64,000 nucleotides of DNA from a virus (Duplodnaviria > Heunggongvirae > Uroviricota > Caudoviricetes), in the IMG/VR virus record IMGVR_UViG_3300015214_000024, positions 137,787-201,786 of that record; one strand, 5' to 3'. Numbering within the stretch: position 1 is the stretch's first letter; each line of letters begins with the position of its first letter. The notes beneath the pieces were generated by a model. The model worked only from the letters and a program-made list of their open reading frames with translations. It was not told the DNA's origin and made no database searches. Of the stretch, positions 14,072-59,591 are shown piece by piece. The position numbers were made by a program, and so were the translations under genes.

Positions 14072-15403
14072 ATGACCATTAGTGTTAAACGATTTTTTAA
14101 TGACGAATATGTCAATACTGCGTCATATGACAACCTTCGCAAGATTGCCTCGGTGGTGGATGGCCAAAAAAATGCTGGACGAAAGATTCTCCATACCATT
14201 TTAGAGAAGAACGTTAAGGATGAAATTAAGGTATCACAGCTTGGTTCTAAAGTTGCCGAGTTTACAGAATATCTACACGGTAGCCTTGATAATGTGATTG
14301 TGAACTTGGCCCAAAACTTCGTGGGTACCAACAATATTCCAATGTTGGTTCGAGAAGGCAACTTTGGTACCCGATTCACCCAGGAAGCTTCTGCTTCGCG
14401 TTACATTTACACTCACGGCTCTGCAGAATTCTTCAAATTGTTCAATAAACAAGATGGTGCAATCTTGCAGGATCAGTTTTTTGAGGGTACTAAAATTGAG
14501 CCCCGCTTTTTTGTTCCAGAATTACCGCTACTGTTGGTTAATGGATCAGAAGGCGTGTCATTTGGCTTTGCTCAAAAGATACTCCCAAGGTCGCCAAAGA
14601 CTTTGATTAAGCTCATCAATGACCGCCTGGCTGGTAAAAAGTGGAAAGACAAAAATATTGTCCCATATTATGAAGGTTTTGGTGGCACTATTGAGCAAGG
14701 CGACTCAAACAATCAGTGGCTCATCAAAGGCGCTATTAAGCGTATTAGCATTACTAAAGTTGAAATTACTGAACTGCCGGTAGGATACGATCTTAGGGGT
14801 TATCTTGATGTGCTTGATACTTTGGAGGAAAAGAAACATATTCAGTCTTATACAGACAAGTCTGAAGACGATAAATTTAAATTTGAAGTAGTTTTTCAGT
14901 CTAAGATGCTTAAAGAAATGACCGATGACGAAGTATTGAGTCATTTGAAACTTATTAAGAAAGTTTCAGAAAATTACACCGTAGTTGACGAATTTAACAA
15001 GATACGAGTTTTCAATGACGTTGTAGAAATCCTCAACCATTATATTGATGTAAAGCTTGATTTCTTGAATAAGCGCAAATCATATATGCTTGGTAAACTT
15101 CAGTTAGATATTGATGTTGATCAAAGCAAATATCATTTTATTGAAGCAATTGTTAAGGGTAAACTTGTTGTCAACAATCGCAAAAAAGCTGACGTTGAAG
15201 CTGACTTGTCTAAGATGAAGAACATTATCACTGTTGAAGGTGGGTATGATTATTTGCTCAATATGAACATTATGTCTCTCACAACAGAACGTATGCAGCG
15301 TTTGGCAGATGCATTGAAAGATAAAAAGTCTGAATTGGCTACTTTGCAGAAAACTACAGTTAACGATATTTGGTCAGAGACTTTAGCTGGATTCAAGTTT
15401 TAA
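14072..15403 (+). CDS. Type IIA DNA topoisomerase, breakage-reunion subunit (T4 gp52-like)
   Basis: DGQK..RK, YLHG, GNFGTR, ASASRY catalytic Tyr, LLVNG, ITELP. Confidence 0.95.
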   Translation: MTISVKRFFNDEYVNTASYDNLRKIASVVDGQKNAGRKILHTILEKNVKDEIKVSQLGSKVAEFTEYLHGSLDNVIVNLAQNFVGTNNIPMLVREGNFGTRFTQEASASRYIYTHGSAEFFKLFNKQDGAILQDQFFEGTKIEPRFFVPELPLLLVNGSEGVSFGFAQKILPRSPKTLIKLINDRLAGKKWKDKNIVPYYEGFGGTIEQGDSNNQWLIKGAIKRISITKVEITELPVGYDLRGYLDVLDTLEEKKHIQSYTDKSEDDKFKFEVVFQSKMLKEMTDDEVLSHLKLIKKVSENYTVVDEFNKIRVFNDVVEILNHYIDVKLDFLNKRKSYMLGKLQLDIDVDQSKYHFIEAIVKGKLVVNNRKKADVEADLSKMKNIITVEGGYDYLLNMNIMSLTTERMQRLADALKDKKSELATLQKTTVNDIWSETLAGFKF

Positions 15404-27725: not shown

Positions 27726-27800
27726 TCCGATTTGGTCCAGGTGGATGGGCACAGGATTCTAAACCCTAGGAGACCGGTTCGATCCCGGTAATCGGAGCCA
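27726..27800 (+). tRNA. Amber suppressor-type tRNA (anticodon CTA)
   Basis: TCCGATT/AATCGGA-G-CCA acceptor, loop TTCTAAA, ACCGG-TTCGATC-CCGGT T arm; anticodon stem has 2 mismatches. Confidence 0.75.
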
Positions 27801-39953: not shown

Positions 39954-40652
39954 ATGACTAATTTTGCATTTGATGTTGATGGTACTTTAACTGACAGCCG
40001 CCGGATAATTGATCCAGCATTCAAAGAATTCTTTTTAAATTTCACTAAAGAGAATACCGTATATCTAGTAACTGGTAGTGATTATCCAAAAACACTTGAA
40101 CAAGTTGGTGACGAAATACTTAATAGTGTTGAAGCTGTTTTTTGCTGTTGCGGTAATGCAGAATATCGAAAAGGCCAACTAATATCGCAAAGCGATTTTA
40201 AAGTCAATGACCAACTTCGATCGTTCTTCCTTGAAATGATGAACGAGAGCCAATTTTATCCCAAAACTGGAAACCATATTGAAGAACGAATCGGTATGGT
40301 TAATTTCAGTATTGTGGGTCGTAATGCAACTTTAGAGGACCGACAGGATTATATCATTTGGGATAAAATGACTTATGAGCGGGAAATAATTAAAAGCTGC
40401 ATTGAAGATCGGTTTGATGAACTTGAAGTTACCCTGGGTGGCGAAACTGGACTTGATATCTACCCAAAAGGAAAAGACAAGTCACAAGTTGCAGATTTGA
40501 TCAGTCCATTCATATTTTTCGGTGACCGTATTGAAGAAGGCGGTAATGATTTGACAATTGCCCAAAAAGCTACTATACACTATAATGTAAGCGGGTGGAA
40601 AGACACTTATTCTATTTTGAAAGAAAAATATACCAATGGCAAGTGTGAGTAA
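39954..40652 (+). CDS. HAD-family phosphomannomutase-like protein
   Basis: FDVDGTLT, LVTGSD, IEER.GM.NFS..GRNA, GKDK, FFGD...GGND. Confidence 0.88.
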   Translation: MTNFAFDVDGTLTDSRRIIDPAFKEFFLNFTKENTVYLVTGSDYPKTLEQVGDEILNSVEAVFCCCGNAEYRKGQLISQSDFKVNDQLRSFFLEMMNESQFYPKTGNHIEERIGMVNFSIVGRNATLEDRQDYIIWDKMTYEREIIKSCIEDRFDELEVTLGGETGLDIYPKGKDKSQVADLISPFIFFGDRIEEGGNDLTIAQKATIHYNVSGWKDTYSILKEKYTNGKCE

Positions 40653-40911
40653 AAAATTTAAAGTCAGTGGTGGAAGATACACTGGACAGGTTCATCCAGG
40701 TACTAATTCACCAGTGGTTGAATGGTTTGCGACTAATTTAGAAATGCCATCTAAGAGAGCAGCCATAAAGTGGATGAATGATAAACGCAAAGCGTATCAA
40801 GCCAGCGGTATAATGACGACTTTTTCGTATCACGAATCAATATCAAAATCATATGATATTGTAGAAGACGAAAAAGGTAAAATTAAATTATGGTGTTTCG
40901 GCCGCGGATAA
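40636..40911 (+). CDS. Hypothetical protein
   Basis: ORF in operon. Confidence 0.5.
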   Translation: MASVSKKFKVSGGRYTGQVHPGTNSPVVEWFATNLEMPSKRAAIKWMNDKRKAYQASGIMTTFSYHESISKSYDIVEDEKGKIKLWCFGRG

Positions 40912-40965
40912 TATTATATCTAGCCACATTATAAATATTTGAGTATCATTTAAAGGAGTGAAAAG

Positions 40966-41020
40966 ATGACACGAACTACTAGCTGACCATCCAGCAAATC
41001 ACTAGGATTGTTGGATGGTC
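40966..41020 (+). promoter_or_regulatory. Thr-rich leader peptide MTRTTS (40966..40986) and overlapping hairpin upstream of ThrRS
   Basis: AAGGAG SD, ATG ACA CGA ACT ACT AGC TGA; GACCATCCAGCAAATC/GATTGTTGGATGGTC stem. Confidence 0.7.
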
Positions 41021-41058
41021 GTATTCAACATTTTCTAACGTGATTTAATAGGAGATCA

Positions 41059-42243
41059 GTGATGTTATACGATCATCGTAAAATTGGCCGAGAAATGGGC
41101 CTATTTCATATTCAAGAAGACGCCGCAGGCTCAGTATTTTGGCACCCACGCGGCTATGCACTTTACCGTAATATTGAAAATTATATTCGAATGAAACAAC
41201 TTCAGTATGGCTATGACGAAGTCAAAAGTCCACAACTGTATGATGTTTCACTTTGGAAAAAGAGTGGTCATTGGGATCACTTCAAGGAAAATATGTATTC
41301 TATTGAGGATTCAAATTTCTCCTTGAAACCTATGAATTGTCCAGGCCACATTCAAATCTTCAATTCTGACCTAATTTCTTATAAACAACTACCTTTGCGG
41401 CTGGCTGAATTTGGTTGTTGCCATCGTAATGAGCCATCTGGTGCATTACACGGTATAATGCGTGTCCGACAGTTTGTCCAAGATGACGCTCATATTTTTT
41501 GTATGGAAAACCAGATTCAATCAGAAGCATTAGCATTTTGTAAAATGCTTCAGGAAGTTTATGATGATTTTGGATTTAAAAATATCAAAGTAGCCTTAAG
41601 TCTGAGACCGGATGACCGTGCTGGCAATGACGCTGATTGGGATTTGGCCGAACAGGCATTAGAGGAAGCCATCAAGCAGGCCGGGTTTGAATACATTCTC
41701 CAGCCAGGTGAAGGTGCATTTTACGGTCCTAAATTGGAATTTGCACTAATCGACCAAGGCGGCCGTGAATGGCAATGTGGTACCATACAATTAGACTTTG
41801 TTTTGGCTGGACGACTTGGGGCAAAATATGTTGCTCAAGATGGTAGCCAAAAAGTGCCAGTTATTTTACACCGTGCAGTATTGGGTTCATTAGAACGATT
41901 TATTGGTATTCTTTTAGAGCATTATGGTAAGGATTTACCAGTATGGCTATTAAAAGACCAATTTGCTGTTTTGCCAATCAAGCCATCAGTCAATGATTAC
42001 GCTTGCAATGTGAAAGAAGCTGTGCTACAATTTGGCTTTAATGCAGAATTGGATTCTGATGATATTTCTCTTGGTGACAAGATTAAAAAATATTATCATA
42101 TTCCCAATCTCATTATTATCGGAGACCGTGAGGCTAAAAACGGCCAAGTTGTTTGGCGAAAACTTGATGGTTCACAGGAAGTTATTGATTTACATATTTT
42201 TTATGAAAAAGTGAAAAATGTGAAAAATCCGTTGAAAAAGTAA
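41059..42243 (+). CDS. thrS: Threonyl-tRNA synthetase, minimal (lacks N-terminal TGS/editing domains)
   Basis: Starts at DHRKIG; KPMNCPGH, HRNE.SG.L.G..RVR.F.QDDAH, FYGPK, WQCGT.QLDF, HRA..GS.ERF. Confidence 0.95.
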   Translation: MMLYDHRKIGREMGLFHIQEDAAGSVFWHPRGYALYRNIENYIRMKQLQYGYDEVKSPQLYDVSLWKKSGHWDHFKENMYSIEDSNFSLKPMNCPGHIQIFNSDLISYKQLPLRLAEFGCCHRNEPSGALHGIMRVRQFVQDDAHIFCMENQIQSEALAFCKMLQEVYDDFGFKNIKVALSLRPDDRAGNDADWDLAEQALEEAIKQAGFEYILQPGEGAFYGPKLEFALIDQGGREWQCGTIQLDFVLAGRLGAKYVAQDGSQKVPVILHRAVLGSLERFIGILLEHYGKDLPVWLLKDQFAVLPIKPSVNDYACNVKEAVLQFGFNAELDSDDISLGDKIKKYYHIPNLIIIGDREAKNGQVVWRKLDGSQEVIDLHIFYEKVKNVKNPLKK

Positions 42244-42272
42244 TTGACACGGACTAAATAGTGTAGTAAGTT
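42244..42272 (+). promoter_or_regulatory. Sigma70-like promoter of tRNA cluster 1
   Basis: TTGACA-17 nt-TAAGTT; spacer CGGACTAAATA is shared with the promoter at 53335. Confidence 0.7.
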
Positions 42273-42316
42273 TAGAACATAAGTTGAAACAAATTTTAAG
42301 GAAAGCAGTTACCATT

Positions 42317-42382
42317 ATGTCACATTCAGTTTATCATTATGAATATGAGCGTGAATATCTCCGTCCAGGGGAGAGTTGGTAA
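42317..42382 (+). CDS. Attenuator leader peptide MSHSVYHYEYEREYLRPGESW (His/Tyr/Glu-rich)
   Basis: AGGAAAG upstream; 10 of 21 residues are H/Y/E; followed by a terminator and His/Tyr/Glu tRNAs. Confidence 0.8.
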   Translation: MSHSVYHYEYEREYLRPGESW

Positions 42383-42415
42383 CGAGTATTTAAAATACTT
42401 CGACTGAACCGATTC

Positions 42416-42445
42416 AACCCTGGGACTGAAATCCCAGGGTTTTTT
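42416..42445 (+). terminator. Attenuator terminator of cluster 1
   Basis: AACCCTGGGA-ctgaaa-TCCCAGGGTT-TTTT; TCCAGGG (42364) in the leader can sequester the 5' arm. Confidence 0.88.
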
Positions 42446-42455
42446 CGTTTTTGTG

Positions 42456-42531
42456 GTGGCATAACGCAAACAGGTGAGCGGACTGACTGTGAATCAGTTG
42501 TTAGAGGGTTCAAGTCCCTTGTGTCACACCA
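42456..42531 (+). tRNA. tRNA-His(GTG), A73 type
   Basis: ACTGA-CTGTGAA-TCAGT; acceptor GTGGCAT/GTGTCAC-A-CCA. Confidence 0.9.
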
Positions 42532-42550
42532 AACATTATTGGAGTGAAAA

Positions 42551-42739
42551 ATGGAAGTATTTGTAATCAAAACTGAAGAAGTTGAACGAACGCTTAAATT
42601 TTTTACCCAATTGGGTTTAAATTTTGTTCAAGAACAACACGGTAATGGACCAATCCATTACGCTTGTGAACAAAATGGAGCAGTTTTTGAAATTTACCCT
42701 AAGGGTAAAACTGAAGGTTTTAAATTTATAGATATGTAA
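42551..42739 (+). CDS. Small VOC/glyoxalase-like protein
   Basis: FF..LGL.F..EQHG.GP.HYA, FEIYP. Confidence 0.7.
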   Translation: MEVFVIKTEEVERTLKFFTQLGLNFVQEQHGNGPIHYACEQNGAVFEIYPKGKTEGFKFIDM

Positions 42740-42744
42740 TTTTT

Positions 42745-42831
42745 GGGTGGTAAAAGTCAGTGGTTCTGATAGGCAGTCTGTAAAACTGCGCCTTTTCGGA
42801 GGGAGTAGTTCGATTCTACTACCACCCACCA
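42745..42831 (+). tRNA. tRNA-Tyr(GTA)
   Basis: GCAGT-CTGTAAA-ACTGC, long variable arm, GGGTGGT/ACCACCC-A-CCA. Confidence 0.9.
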
Positions 42832-42840
42832 AGAAATTAT

Positions 42841-42916
42841 GGTGACTGAAGTGTTGACGGATACACGCTTGGTTGTGAACCAGGAGTAACGGGCTCGATA
42901 CCCGTTGGTCACCCCA
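42841..42916 (+). tRNA. tRNA-His(GTG), G-1:C73 type
   Basis: CTTGG-TTGTGAA-CCAGG; G-GTGACTG/TGGTCAC-C-CCA. Confidence 0.88.
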
Positions 42917-42922
42917 AATTAT

Positions 42923-42998
42923 GCAACGGTCTTCTAATGGTTAGGAACCCTGACTTTCAATCAGGCCAATGCGAGTTCAAGTCTCGTCCGTTGCACCA
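42923..42998 (+). tRNA. tRNA-Glu(TTC)
   Basis: CCTGA-CTTTCAA-TCAGG; GCAACGG/CCGTTGC-A-CCA. Confidence 0.9.
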
Positions 42999-43157
42999 AA
43001 GCTTGTGCTTTGTGACCCTTCATACGCCCGAGGGTCAGAAAAATATCAGGATGCTGATACGGTATTATATACTAAAGGCATTGGGACCGCGCAGTACGCA
43101 CTACGGCTGAGTCATAAGGACTGAATAGTAGATGCTCGGTAGCGGCGAGCAAAATAT

Positions 43158-45387: not shown

Positions 45388-45472
45388 GTCAAAACTACTA
45401 AAGACGAATGGTAGAGTCAGCCCGCTCTTATACGGGATAATAGCTGGTTCGATTCCAGTTAGTAGTTTTGGC
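45388..45472 (+). ncRNA. tRNA-like RNA with extended acceptor stem and 8-nt anticodon loop
   Basis: GTCAAAACTACTA/TAGTAGTTTTGGC; CCCG-CTCTTATA-CGGG; GCTGG-TTCGATT-CCAGT. Confidence 0.6.
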
Positions 45473-45619: not shown

Positions 45620-45717
45620 TATGAGCCAGGCGGCGGGAGTAGAACAGTGGTACTTCACCTCCATCCCAGGAGGAGATTGTAGGTTCGATTCCTACCTTGC
45701 CGCCCGTCCTGGCCATA
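45620..45717 (+). ncRNA. tRNA-like RNA with 6-nt anticodon loop and paired flanks
   Basis: CGGCGGG/CTTGCCG; CCTCC-ATCCCA-GGAGG; GTAGG-TTCGATT-CCTAC; flanks GCCAGG/CCTGGC. Confidence 0.6.
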
Positions 45718-48763: not shown

Positions 48764-49385
48764 ATGCTACGTGGTACACGTTTGATTGAGGGCAAGGAAG
48801 CTCAAACATTTAATGAAGTAATTGATACCTTTCGGAGGTTAGTTCATCCAGTCTGATTTCGAAGAAATCATTGTTCCCAGTATTTGGGAACAAGAAACCT
48901 TTTTGGCCAAAACTGGCCCAGAACTATCTAAACAAATGTGGACCTTTAAGGATAAAGGTGATCGAGACGTTTGTTTGATTCCTGAAGTTACCGGTATTTT
49001 TCAAGAAACTTGGCGTGAAAAATGGTCCAAGTCAATGAAATTCCGTAAAGTGTTTTACGTACAACGCTGTTATAGGTATGAAAGGCCGCAAGCTGGCCGT
49101 TATCGTGAATTTACGCAATTGGGTATTGAAATCCTTGGTAACTATGATAATGGTGATCAAGAGGCTCAAGATTTGTTGAAAGCTGGTCTTGACGCAATTG
49201 GTGTAGAGTATGAATTTGATTCAACCGCGACACGTGGTCTCGGATACTACACTGAGCTTGGTTTTGAAGCTCGTTGCGAATCACTTGGTGCGCAAAAGCA
49301 AGTAGCAGGCGGCGGCCGTTATGCTGAAGGTGTTGGATGGGCTATTGGTGTTGACCGACTGGTTTTAGCTAAAATGAATAAATGA
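48764..49385 (+). CDS. hisS: Minimal histidyl-tRNA synthetase catalytic domain, needs a +1 frameshift near 48842-48856
   Basis: GGAGG SD + MLRGTR in frame 0 (TGA at 48854); +1 frame FEEIIVP, LIPEVT, YRYERPQAGRYREFTQLG.E, RGLGYYT, GGGRY, GWAIGVDRL. Confidence 0.85.
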
Positions 49386-58325: not shown

Positions 58326-59591
58326 ATGGCGATGTATGATCAGTATGTATGCGTAATGTTCCCGTATCCTAGTGGCGCTGGCCTGCATTTGGGTCATTAT
58401 TACAACTATGCTGTAATTGACTCATATGCTAGGTGGCAGCGTTTTAAAGGTCAGACGGTTTTTCAACCTTTTGGTTATGATGCTTTTGGCTTGCCTGCAG
58501 AAAACTATGCTCGCCAAATTGGCGGTGATCCTAGAACAATAACTAATCAAAATATTCAAAATTTCCGTAAACAAATGCGAAATATGAATACTTTGTATGA
58601 CGAACAGTTGGTTACTTGTGAAACTGATTACGTTAAGTGGACCCAATGGATCTTTAATGCTTTGAAAGATCGTGGATTAGCATACAAAGCTTGGGGTGAA
58701 GTAAATTGGTGTGAACAGTGCGGGACCGTGTTGGCTAATGAACAAGCGCAAAATGGCATTTGTGAACGCCACGGAACTCCTGTTGAAAAACGTCAAATGA
58801 ATCAGTGGTATTTCAAGATTACTGATTATACTGATCGATTGATTAAGAATTTGGACTGGATTGATTATCCGGAAGGGACTAAGAAGCAACAGCGCAAATG
58901 GTTGGAGGATCAGCAAGATTGGTGTGTCAGTCGTCAGCGTTCTTGGGGCTGTCCTATACCAATTGAAGGTGAAACTGACACCTTGGACACTTTTGTTGAC
59001 TCTTCATTTTATTTCTTGCGCTATTTGACTAAAAGTGAAGATGAGTTTTTGCCAGCTGATCAATACAAGCAAGTCGATCTGTATGTTGGTGGCCCAGAAC
59101 ACGCTTGTATGCATTTGATATATGCTCGTTTTATTCATATGGTTTTGTTTGATATGGGAATTGTTCCTGAAGAAGAGCCATTTAAGAAAGTTATTCATCA
59201 GGGTATGATTACCAAGGATGGGAACAAGATGAGCAAAAGTAAAGGTAATGCCGTTAGTCCTGATGACTATGATCCTGACGAATTGAGAATGTATTTGATG
59301 TTCTTGGGGCCATATTTTGAAGGTGGGGATTGGAGTGACCAGCATATTGTTGGTGTTCGCCGCTTCTTCAATAGGATGAAAACTTGGTTGGGAGAAGCTG
59401 GCACTGAAAATATTGACACTTCTCAGTTGGAAAATCAAATTGATCATTATGTTTCTACTTTCAAATTTAATAAAGTAGTTTCAAGTTTTATGGAATTTAT
59501 GAACAAAAATAAATCCAAAAAAGTTGATAATGAAACTCGAAATAAAATTGTCAGAATGTTGACTAATTTTGCCCCAGGGTTTCGAATTTAA
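58326..59591 (+). CDS. leuS: Minimal leucyl-tRNA synthetase (no CP1 editing or C-terminal domain)
   Basis: MFPYPSG.GLHLGH, GYDAFGLPAEN, TVLANEQ, DWCVSRQR.WG.PIP, DTLDTFVDSS.YF, GG.EHA..HL.YARF, KMSKSKGN. Confidence 0.93.
   Translation: MAMYDQYVCVMFPYPSGAGLHLGHYYNYAVIDSYARWQRFKGQTVFQPFGYDAFGLPAENYARQIGGDPRTITNQNIQNFRKQMRNMNTLYDEQLVTCETDYVKWTQWIFNALKDRGLAYKAWGEVNWCEQCGTVLANEQAQNGICERHGTPVEKRQMNQWYFKITDYTDRLIKNLDWIDYPEGTKKQQRKWLEDQQDWCVSRQRSWGCPIPIEGETDTLDTFVDSSFYFLRYLTKSEDEFLPADQYKQVDLYVGGPEHACMHLIYARFIHMVLFDMGIVPEEEPFKKVIHQGMITKDGNKMSKSKGNAVSPDDYDPDELRMYLMFLGPYFEGGDWSDQHIVGVRRFFNRMKTWLGEAGTENIDTSQLENQIDHYVSTFKFNKVVSSFMEFMNKNKSKKVDNETRNKIVRMLTNFAPGFRI

Follow-up and report, generated by a model that had tools for sequence, protein, structure and literature searches.

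Why should a bacteriophage place a micro open reading frame (micro-ORF) rich in threonine codons, ending in a strong hairpin, directly before its own gene for threonyl-tRNA synthetase (ThrRS)? This question is raised by the gene thrS at 41062-42243 of the window, by which we mean the whole stretch of 64,000 nucleotides analysed (bases 137787-201786 of the virus record IMGVR_UViG_3300015214_000024). All coordinates are window positions unless a genome position is given, and thrS and all features of its leader are situated on the plus strand. A first-pass annotation of this DNA had proposed that the micro-ORF MTRTTS and an RNA structure control the synthetase gene. From the comparison with homologous leaders and from RNA modelling we consider translational attenuation of thrS through ribosome pausing at the Thr codons of the micro-ORF to be the most probable explanation and put its probability at roughly 0.55.

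The micro-ORF (40966-40986) reads ATG ACA CGA ACT ACT AGC TGA, with its Thr codons at 40969-40971 (ACA), 40975-40977, and 40978-40980 (both ACT) and its stop codon at 40984-40986. It is preceded by the Shine-Dalgarno (SD) sequence GGAG (40955-40958), located 7 nt before the ATG at 40966. The stop codon lies within the base of the hairpin, which is located 41 nt before thrS. ACT and ACA are the commonest Thr codons of the phage (47% and 27%, respectively), and tRNA-Thr genes able to read them are present in the phage genome, with the anticodons TGT (two copies), GGT, and CGT.

For the comparison nine distinct leader sequences were used, the window included; the others stem from contigs of other metagenomes, and the ThrRS sequences encoded are 76-100% identical. 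All close homologues were obtained via protein look-ups. A megablast search with 40000-43000 against phage records yielded no match, nor did scanning viral_contigs and metagenome_contigs for exact patterns of the leader, and the locus L106 contributed no new leader variant. The conserved unit comprises 130-160 nt and consists of a TAAATAT element, GGAG, the micro-ORF, the hairpin (helix A below), a spacer with CAAC and ATGA, and the SD sequence of thrS. In all nine leaders GGAG is found 7-10 nt before the ATG of the micro-ORF, and in all nine the micro-ORF is open, encoding MTRTTS, MTRTTI, MTRTRTTS, or MTRTRTTT; the frame is never broken. An in-frame duplication of 6 nt adds a Thr-Arg pair, codon 6 is Ser, Ile, or Thr, and the stop codon is TGA or TAA. 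Every leader contains three to five Thr codons, which corresponds to 3/5, 4/7, or 5/7 of the codons following the start.

The chance of finding at least three Thr in five codons at the Thr frequency of the phage is 2.9e-3, and over the variants it ranges from 2.9e-3 to 2.8e-5. The leader goes beyond chance because the micro-ORF and the hairpin recur in nine homologous loci behind different upstream genes. Depending on the contig, the preceding gene is an ORF of 91, 74, 59, or 83 amino acids, an ORF of 209 or 211 amino acids, or the gene for IF3. The strong SD sequence and the six-codon ORF with three Thr codons ending in the 5' arm of the hairpin are as the first-pass annotation had described them, and the conservation upstream of phage thrS, for which it had suggested to look, is found in nine distinct loci, all of which keep both micro-ORF and hairpin.

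The leader can form four helices. Helix A (40985-41020) joins a 5' arm at 40985-41000, which begins inside the stop codon, with a 3' arm at 41006-41020. It comprises 15 bp with one bulged A and the loop ACTAG, and for the hairpin alone -22 kcal/mol is predicted. Helix A is the RNAalifold consensus; across the leaders its cells are paired to 94.9%, and the changes comprise one C-G to U-A double change and four wobble changes. Helix B (40997-41045) pairs the loop and the upper 3' arm of A (40997-41017) with the spacer at 41022-41045. It excludes helix A, with which it shares 41006-41017, and its inner 8 bp (41009-41016 with 41023-41030) are directly followed by TTTTCT. Helix B was predicted independently in 9/9 leaders with -13.6 to -19.1 kcal/mol and is the fold predicted when the 5' arm of A is blocked. 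Helix 1:4 connects the last codons of the micro-ORF, the stop codon, and the adjacent CCATCC (40975-40992) with 41050-41060, that is, with the SD sequence AGGAG of thrS (41050-41054) and the spacer behind it. Finally, in helix E an anti-start segment (41014-41032) pairs with 41061-41077, where thrS starts and its codons 2-6 follow (M L Y D H R). In 9/9 leaders this helix amounts to 15-17 bp with -14.5 to -18.8 kcal/mol, compared with -5.5 +/- 2.2 for shuffled partners. The unconstrained minimum-energy fold consists of helix B and the outer helix 1:4 in eight of the nine leaders. Both the SD sequence and the start codon of thrS are thus predicted to be sequestered in the leader structure.

On MAFFT alignments RNAalifold recovered helix A and only the core of helix B, because indels misalign the outer stem; per-sequence folds and an arm-swap test were used instead. 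In this test the 3' strands were exchanged among eight non-redundant leaders, ignoring their relatedness. The native partners were better for all four helices. For helix B the native value is -15.9 and the swapped value -12.1, and 7 of 20000 permutations were as good as the native combination; for helix 1:4 the values are -10.6 and -8.7, with 56/20000 permutations as good. The corresponding numbers of permutations are 25/20000 for helix E and 275/20000 for helix A. This partner specificity is also visible in single exchanges. The loop of A varies in step with the downstream spacer (AATCAC/GTGATT versus TCATAT/ATATGA), the exchange of the stop codon TGA for TAA is accompanied by C to T after the thrS SD sequence in helix 1:4, and a synonymous TAC/TAT change in codon 3 of thrS accompanies a G/A change in the leader.

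A different competitor of the hairpin had been put forward in the first-pass annotation, namely an alternative pairing of CTAGCTGA with the top of the hairpin. This pairing rests on the palindrome CTAG in the loop of the window, and the loop of helix A is not conserved in the homologues, so that we dropped it. The real competitors of the hairpin are the helices B, 1:4, and E, none of which the first-pass annotation had seen. A pairing of UUUUCUA with the SD sequence of thrS was likewise rejected; it is found in the window only, and the homologues do not have that strand.

Based on these pairings the leader would act as a ribosome-operated RNA switch that sets the frequency of thrS translation and, by way of the Thr codons in the micro-ORF, senses how much charged tRNA-Thr is available. 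In the free RNA the ribosome binding site (RBS) of thrS would be closed in either of two folds: first, hairpin A together with a partial helix E, in which the spacer pairs with the thrS start; second, helix B together with the pairing of the micro-ORF end and CCATCC with the thrS SD sequence (helix 1:4). A ribosome on the last codons of the micro-ORF would cover that strand, and neither A nor 1:4 could form. Helix B would then take up the anti-start segment, leaving the SD sequence and the AUG of thrS free. Fast decoding would open the site only briefly, whereas waiting for Thr-tRNA at ACA or ACT, and possibly slow termination at UGA-C, would prolong the opening and lead to more ThrRS. The anatomy of the leader, its conservation, the partner specificity of its helices, and the predicted energies are shown here; that the micro-ORF is translated, that ribosomes pause at its Thr codons, and in which direction thrS responds are inferred.

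The energy needed to open the RBS was computed over the region from SD-2 to AUG+13 of thrS. For the free RNA of the nine leaders the predicted opening cost is 8.5-14.3 kcal/mol, and with a ribosome footprint on the micro-ORF it is 3.4-6.7 kcal/mol in 9/9 leaders. In the leaders with eight codons the modelled cost falls for nearly every ribosome position from codon 3 on.

A second family of leaders was found upstream of thrS genes coding for ThrRS without editing domains that are 58-62% identical to the enzyme of the phage (loci L018/L005, L021, L102, L104, and L105, on phage contigs of up to 436 kb). These genes are preceded by a conserved ORF of 62-75 codons whose last 12 codons form a Thr run, e.g. 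ITTETSTTTARD, and whose stop codon is situated in the loop of an 8-bp hairpin. Here the Thr codons themselves, ATCACCACA, pair with TGTGGTGAT in the SD region 6-8 nt before the ATG of thrS, with predicted energies of -13.6 to -21 kcal/mol. The modelled opening cost is 9.7-12.4 kcal/mol for the free RNA and is reduced to 4.5-7.9 kcal/mol only with the A site on or just before the Thr run; with the ribosome at the last codons or at the stop it is back to about 10-12 in four of the five leaders. The arm-swap test gave no signal for this family: 65/120 permutations did as well as the native combination, the pairing strands being conserved and not co-varying. In the modelling, the use of Thr codons as anti-SD strand provides the clearest argument that pausing at Thr codons would open thrS. 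Control of thrS by a Thr-rich micro-leader and an RNA structure, as originally proposed, thus appears supported by the conservation, the in-frame variation, the arm swaps, and this second, independent family with its Thr run.

A further leader is located on the other side of the gene. At 42318-42383, 75 nt after thrS, there is a His/Tyr/Glu-rich ORF of 21 codons, MSHSVYHYEYEREYLRPGESW, which is followed by a canonical terminator at 42416-42441 and then by the genes for tRNA-His(GTG), tRNA-Tyr(GTA), tRNA-His(GTG), and tRNA-Glu(TTC) at 42456-42998. This arrangement looks like a leader-peptide attenuator before tRNA genes; it speaks for the proposed reading of the thrS leader, since it shows this genome to use leaders with cognate codons habitually.

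Several observations weigh against pausing at Thr codons as the signal. In the group of leaders to which the window belongs, opening is predicted only once the edge of the ribosome enters hairpin A by about 8-10 nt. For the window this means an A site at the stop codon with the edge set at P+13, at AGC with P+15, and at the second ACT with P+17; a stall at either of the first two Thr codons is predicted to leave the site closed. Among the leaders modelled, that of the window therefore makes the weakest case for Thr-specific opening. Helix A has only its one double compensatory change, and since the leaders form two sub-groups, independent events are few and are overstated by the permutation tests. 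The four helices are so close in energy that thermodynamic modelling could not fix the order of events. The 13 nt ACACGAACTACTA do not vary, not even at third codon positions, for which coding alone is no explanation. Moreover, the other six genes of the phage that resemble aminoacyl-tRNA synthetase (aaRS) genes have no evident cognate micro-leader, and most other phage loci for ThrRS without editing domains do not have a Thr leader.

We considered three other explanations for the leader. First, the micro-ORF could be a general unfolding or loading device, so that the output would follow translation capacity or the speed of termination (UGA-C in the window), the Thr codons being incidental or required for pairing. 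In the model a ribosome at the end of the ORF opens the RBS regardless of the codon in the A site, and in the window group the largest drop in opening cost occurs at the stop codon. The invariant nucleotides suggest a constraint at the RNA level, and codon 6 is not Thr in every leader. However, Thr is enriched in all variants, the duplication adds a Thr, and one variant has Thr at codon 6 as well. The second and unrelated family of leaders also ends in a Thr run forming the anti-SD strand, and in the neighbouring MSHSVYHYEYEREYLRPGESW leader precisely those amino acids are abundant whose tRNA genes follow it. We consider a device indifferent to Thr unlikely.

Second, the leader could act on transcription. 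A ribosome at the stop codon would melt helix A, the inner part of helix B (41009-41030) together with TTTTCT would terminate transcription, and a stall at the Thr codons would keep A as an anti-terminator. This logic matches pheM-pheST and the trpS and leuS attenuators predicted in Streptomyces (PMC1262725), and the phage uses terminator-based leaders nearby. The window and the loci L010 and L013 indeed have a hairpin of 8-9 bp directly followed by four to five T. None of the six other leaders, however, has a T tract behind helix B in any of its forms. The stem of the window is AU-rich with two G-C pairs, and the terminator scan that calls the canonical terminator at 42416-42441 called no intrinsic terminator in the leader. 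Furthermore, attenuation of transcription leaves the conserved pairings onto the SD sequence and the start codon of thrS unexplained. The first-pass annotation had already remarked that no U tract follows the hairpin directly, which agrees with the lack of a conserved T tract in the homologues, and had named translational control as one of two options; with no conserved terminator and with the predicted helices converging on the RBS of thrS, this option appears to be the better-supported output, nothing in the analysis points to Rho dependence, the other option, and termination within the leader is distinctly improbable.

The third explanation, that the micro-ORF is untranslated and that the leader is an operator whose folds are chosen by a trans-acting factor (ThrRS itself as in E. 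coli thrS, uncharged tRNA-Thr in the manner of a T-box, or another phage protein or RNA), we regard as very improbable. In its favour, not a single nucleotide varies in the 13-nt block, the classical control of aaRS genes is exerted by their own product or by tRNA (PMC2965389; PMC1262725), and the window, L010, and L013 carry CGT or TGT, anticodons of Thr, in the apical loop of helix B. However, no Rfam family, T-box and Thr leader included, matched the leader at the gathering score or at E values of up to 10, the loops are not conserved, the other six leaders do not have the anticodon-like triplets, and the SD sequence, the in-frame indel, and the retention of a stop codon point to translation.

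The enzyme encoded by thrS bears on the same point. The ThrRS of 393 amino acids consists of the catalytic core and the anticodon-binding domain only. Its start is the ATG at 41062; a GTG upstream at 41059 is not conserved in the homologues. In E. coli the N-terminal domain of ThrRS is needed for the competition with the ribosome in the autoregulation of thrS; the phage enzyme does not have this domain, which argues further against an operator. The alignment of the phage ThrRS shows the motifs KPMNCPGH, QDDAH, and LHRA, which, judging from E. coli ThrRS, presumably hold the zinc ligands. Pfam matches are limited to tRNA-synt_2b and HGTP_anticodon, the protein begins with M-L-Y-D-H-R-K, and its alignment with E. 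coli ThrRS (1qf6) covers residues 243-615 of the latter. By Pfam and by this alignment the TGS and tRNA_SAD domains are absent, so that the enzyme is devoid of the N1/N2 editing domains, just as first annotated. A tRNA_SAD editing domain was found nowhere in the 455-kb genome. The closest ThrRS sequences in a protein search form five protein clusters of 393-394 amino acids with 76-89% identity, followed by many matches of about 60%; the closest bacterial ThrRS are 57-59% identical. Short forms of ThrRS were encountered in 24 of the 82 loci checked and are widespread in huge phages and giant-virus bins. Like the phage enzyme, mitochondrial MST1 of yeast (PMC4267643) and a delta-N crystallisation construct of E. 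coli ThrRS (PDB 1evk) are composed of the catalytic core and the anticodon-binding domain only; the phage form differs from both in being a natural phage gene nearest to bacterial ThrRS. An enzyme without editing domains raises the separate question of Ser misacylation during infection.

Two further observations concern thrS loci elsewhere. In relatives of the phage a protein of 152 amino acids consisting only of the GGQ domain of RF-1 is encoded directly before SerRS and near thrS (L007, 238-696; L014, 471-929; L009, 1-474); it may matter if the speed of termination at the micro-ORF counts. In other huge phages (L037 at about 1430-1500, and L093 upstream of thrS), the start codon of a thrS without editing domains directly abuts tRNA-like sequences.

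Upstream of the micro-ORF an AT-rich, promoter-like element, TATAAATAT, is located at 40930-40938, about 17 nt before the micro-ORF SD sequence. Its core TAAATAT is invariant in the leader alignment although the upstream genes differ, and it may serve as a promoter; we take it to resemble the late -10 element of T4. As a frequent late promoter, TATAAATA was rejected: 17 and 14 copies were counted per strand versus about 33 expected, without enrichment genome-wide. Contigs from a straw metatranscriptome span 40778-41124 and 40912-41108 at a depth of 2.5-3.6. They were not used as evidence of transcription because neither strand nor ends can be read from them and because DNA may have been carried over.

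The genome in question is a single virus record of 455,147 bp with 39% G+C, rated 100% complete by CheckV, and the phage DNA is present as a whole in two landfill metagenome runs. With 69 tRNA genes (predicted by ARAGORN) and several aaRS-like genes the phage falls into the group of huge phages known for genes of both kinds; the survey of this group (PMC7162821) lists the genes only, without their control. Two of the aaRS-like ORFs are shortened: a class II core of about 160-180 amino acids at 48903-49385, and a class I enzyme of 421 amino acids at 58326-59591, directly after a tRNA-like sequence. An ORF of 16 codons, MKTLNLIKNIRIIKAR, with four Ile and two Leu lies on the minus strand at genome position 297,5xx upstream of a class I aaRS of 869 amino acids; it overlaps by its start with the stop of the gene before it, terminates inside a hairpin about 55 nt ahead of the synthetase start, and may be a leader. 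Two tRNA genes (27726-27800 of the window and 15281-15358 of the genome) have the anticodon CTA, which would read TAG, and among the stops of long ORFs TAG is used least (17 of 325, versus 205 TAA and 103 TGA). Together this suggests possible amber suppression or partial recoding. Two tRNA-like genes called by ARAGORN, at 45393-45468 and 45631-45705, have abnormal anticodon loops with four bases ('ctta') and two bases ('cc'), respectively, and both are also scored as tRNA by Rfam. A gene of the phosphomannomutase family (PMM/HAD) is situated at 39954-40652, two genes upstream of thrS; in L101 a PMM gene directly follows thrS.

If translational attenuation of thrS is correct, the phage would monitor charged tRNA-Thr in the course of infection and set its own synthetase accordingly, combining sensing of the bacterial style with a translational output, and thrS would be regulated by another route besides the ThrRS operator and the T-box. 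With about 110 nt the switch is compact, and together with the natural compensatory variants of its helices it suits mechanistic study. More tentatively, and at somewhat less than even odds, huge phages might gauge the charging of individual tRNAs by leader-peptide switches before their own translation genes. In that case thrS would be the first aaRS gene under cognate-codon translational attenuation, and this control would have arisen twice, once as the micro-ORF of 6-8 codons with its four helices and once as the ORF of 62-75 codons whose Thr run is the anti-SD strand.

In the literature searched, neither leader-peptide control of thrS nor regulation of phage synthetase genes was described. 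The same gene is regulated in E. coli by the thrS operator and in Firmicutes by the thrS T-box, and in E. coli the output is also at translation initiation. However, the E. coli operator uses stem-loops mimicking the anticodon arm with conserved NGU loops, which are absent here, CGT or TGT being found in 3/9 leaders only. The elements of the T-box (specifier loop and T-box sequence) are absent as well, and there is no match to its covariance model. The polycysteine short ORFs of mycobacteria, described as cysteine-responsive attenuators (bioRxiv 10.1101/834739), share with the proposed phage switch a short ORF rich in one amino acid that controls the downstream gene in response to that amino acid; they are leaderless and belong to bacterial operons of cysteine metabolism, whereas the phage has an SD-led micro-ORF before a synthetase gene.

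Closer parallels are found in pheM-pheST and in the trpS and leuS leaders of Streptomyces (PMC1262725). As in these systems, a short leader with cognate codons precedes an aaRS gene, mutually exclusive helices are situated at the end of the ORF, and pausing would report charging. Theirs is a transcriptional control with an intrinsic terminator, whereas the phage leader has no conserved terminator and its helices are predicted to mask the SD sequence and the start of thrS. Furthermore, the phage leader has only 6-8 codons, occurs in a phage, and precedes thrS. With ermC, cat, and ermB the leader would share the four-segment design, in which the RBS is sequestered, a stalled ribosome covers segment 1, and the 2:3 helix frees the RBS. 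There the trigger is a drug-bound ribosome together with a specific nascent peptide, whereas in the phage it is presumably the waiting for Thr-tRNA. Unlike the ermC type, the phage switch has two extra helices (1:4 and E), so that both resting folds would be closed. All parts of the leader switch are of known kinds: by analogy, its sensing logic would be that of pheM-pheST and of trpS/leuS, and its output would resemble that of ermC.

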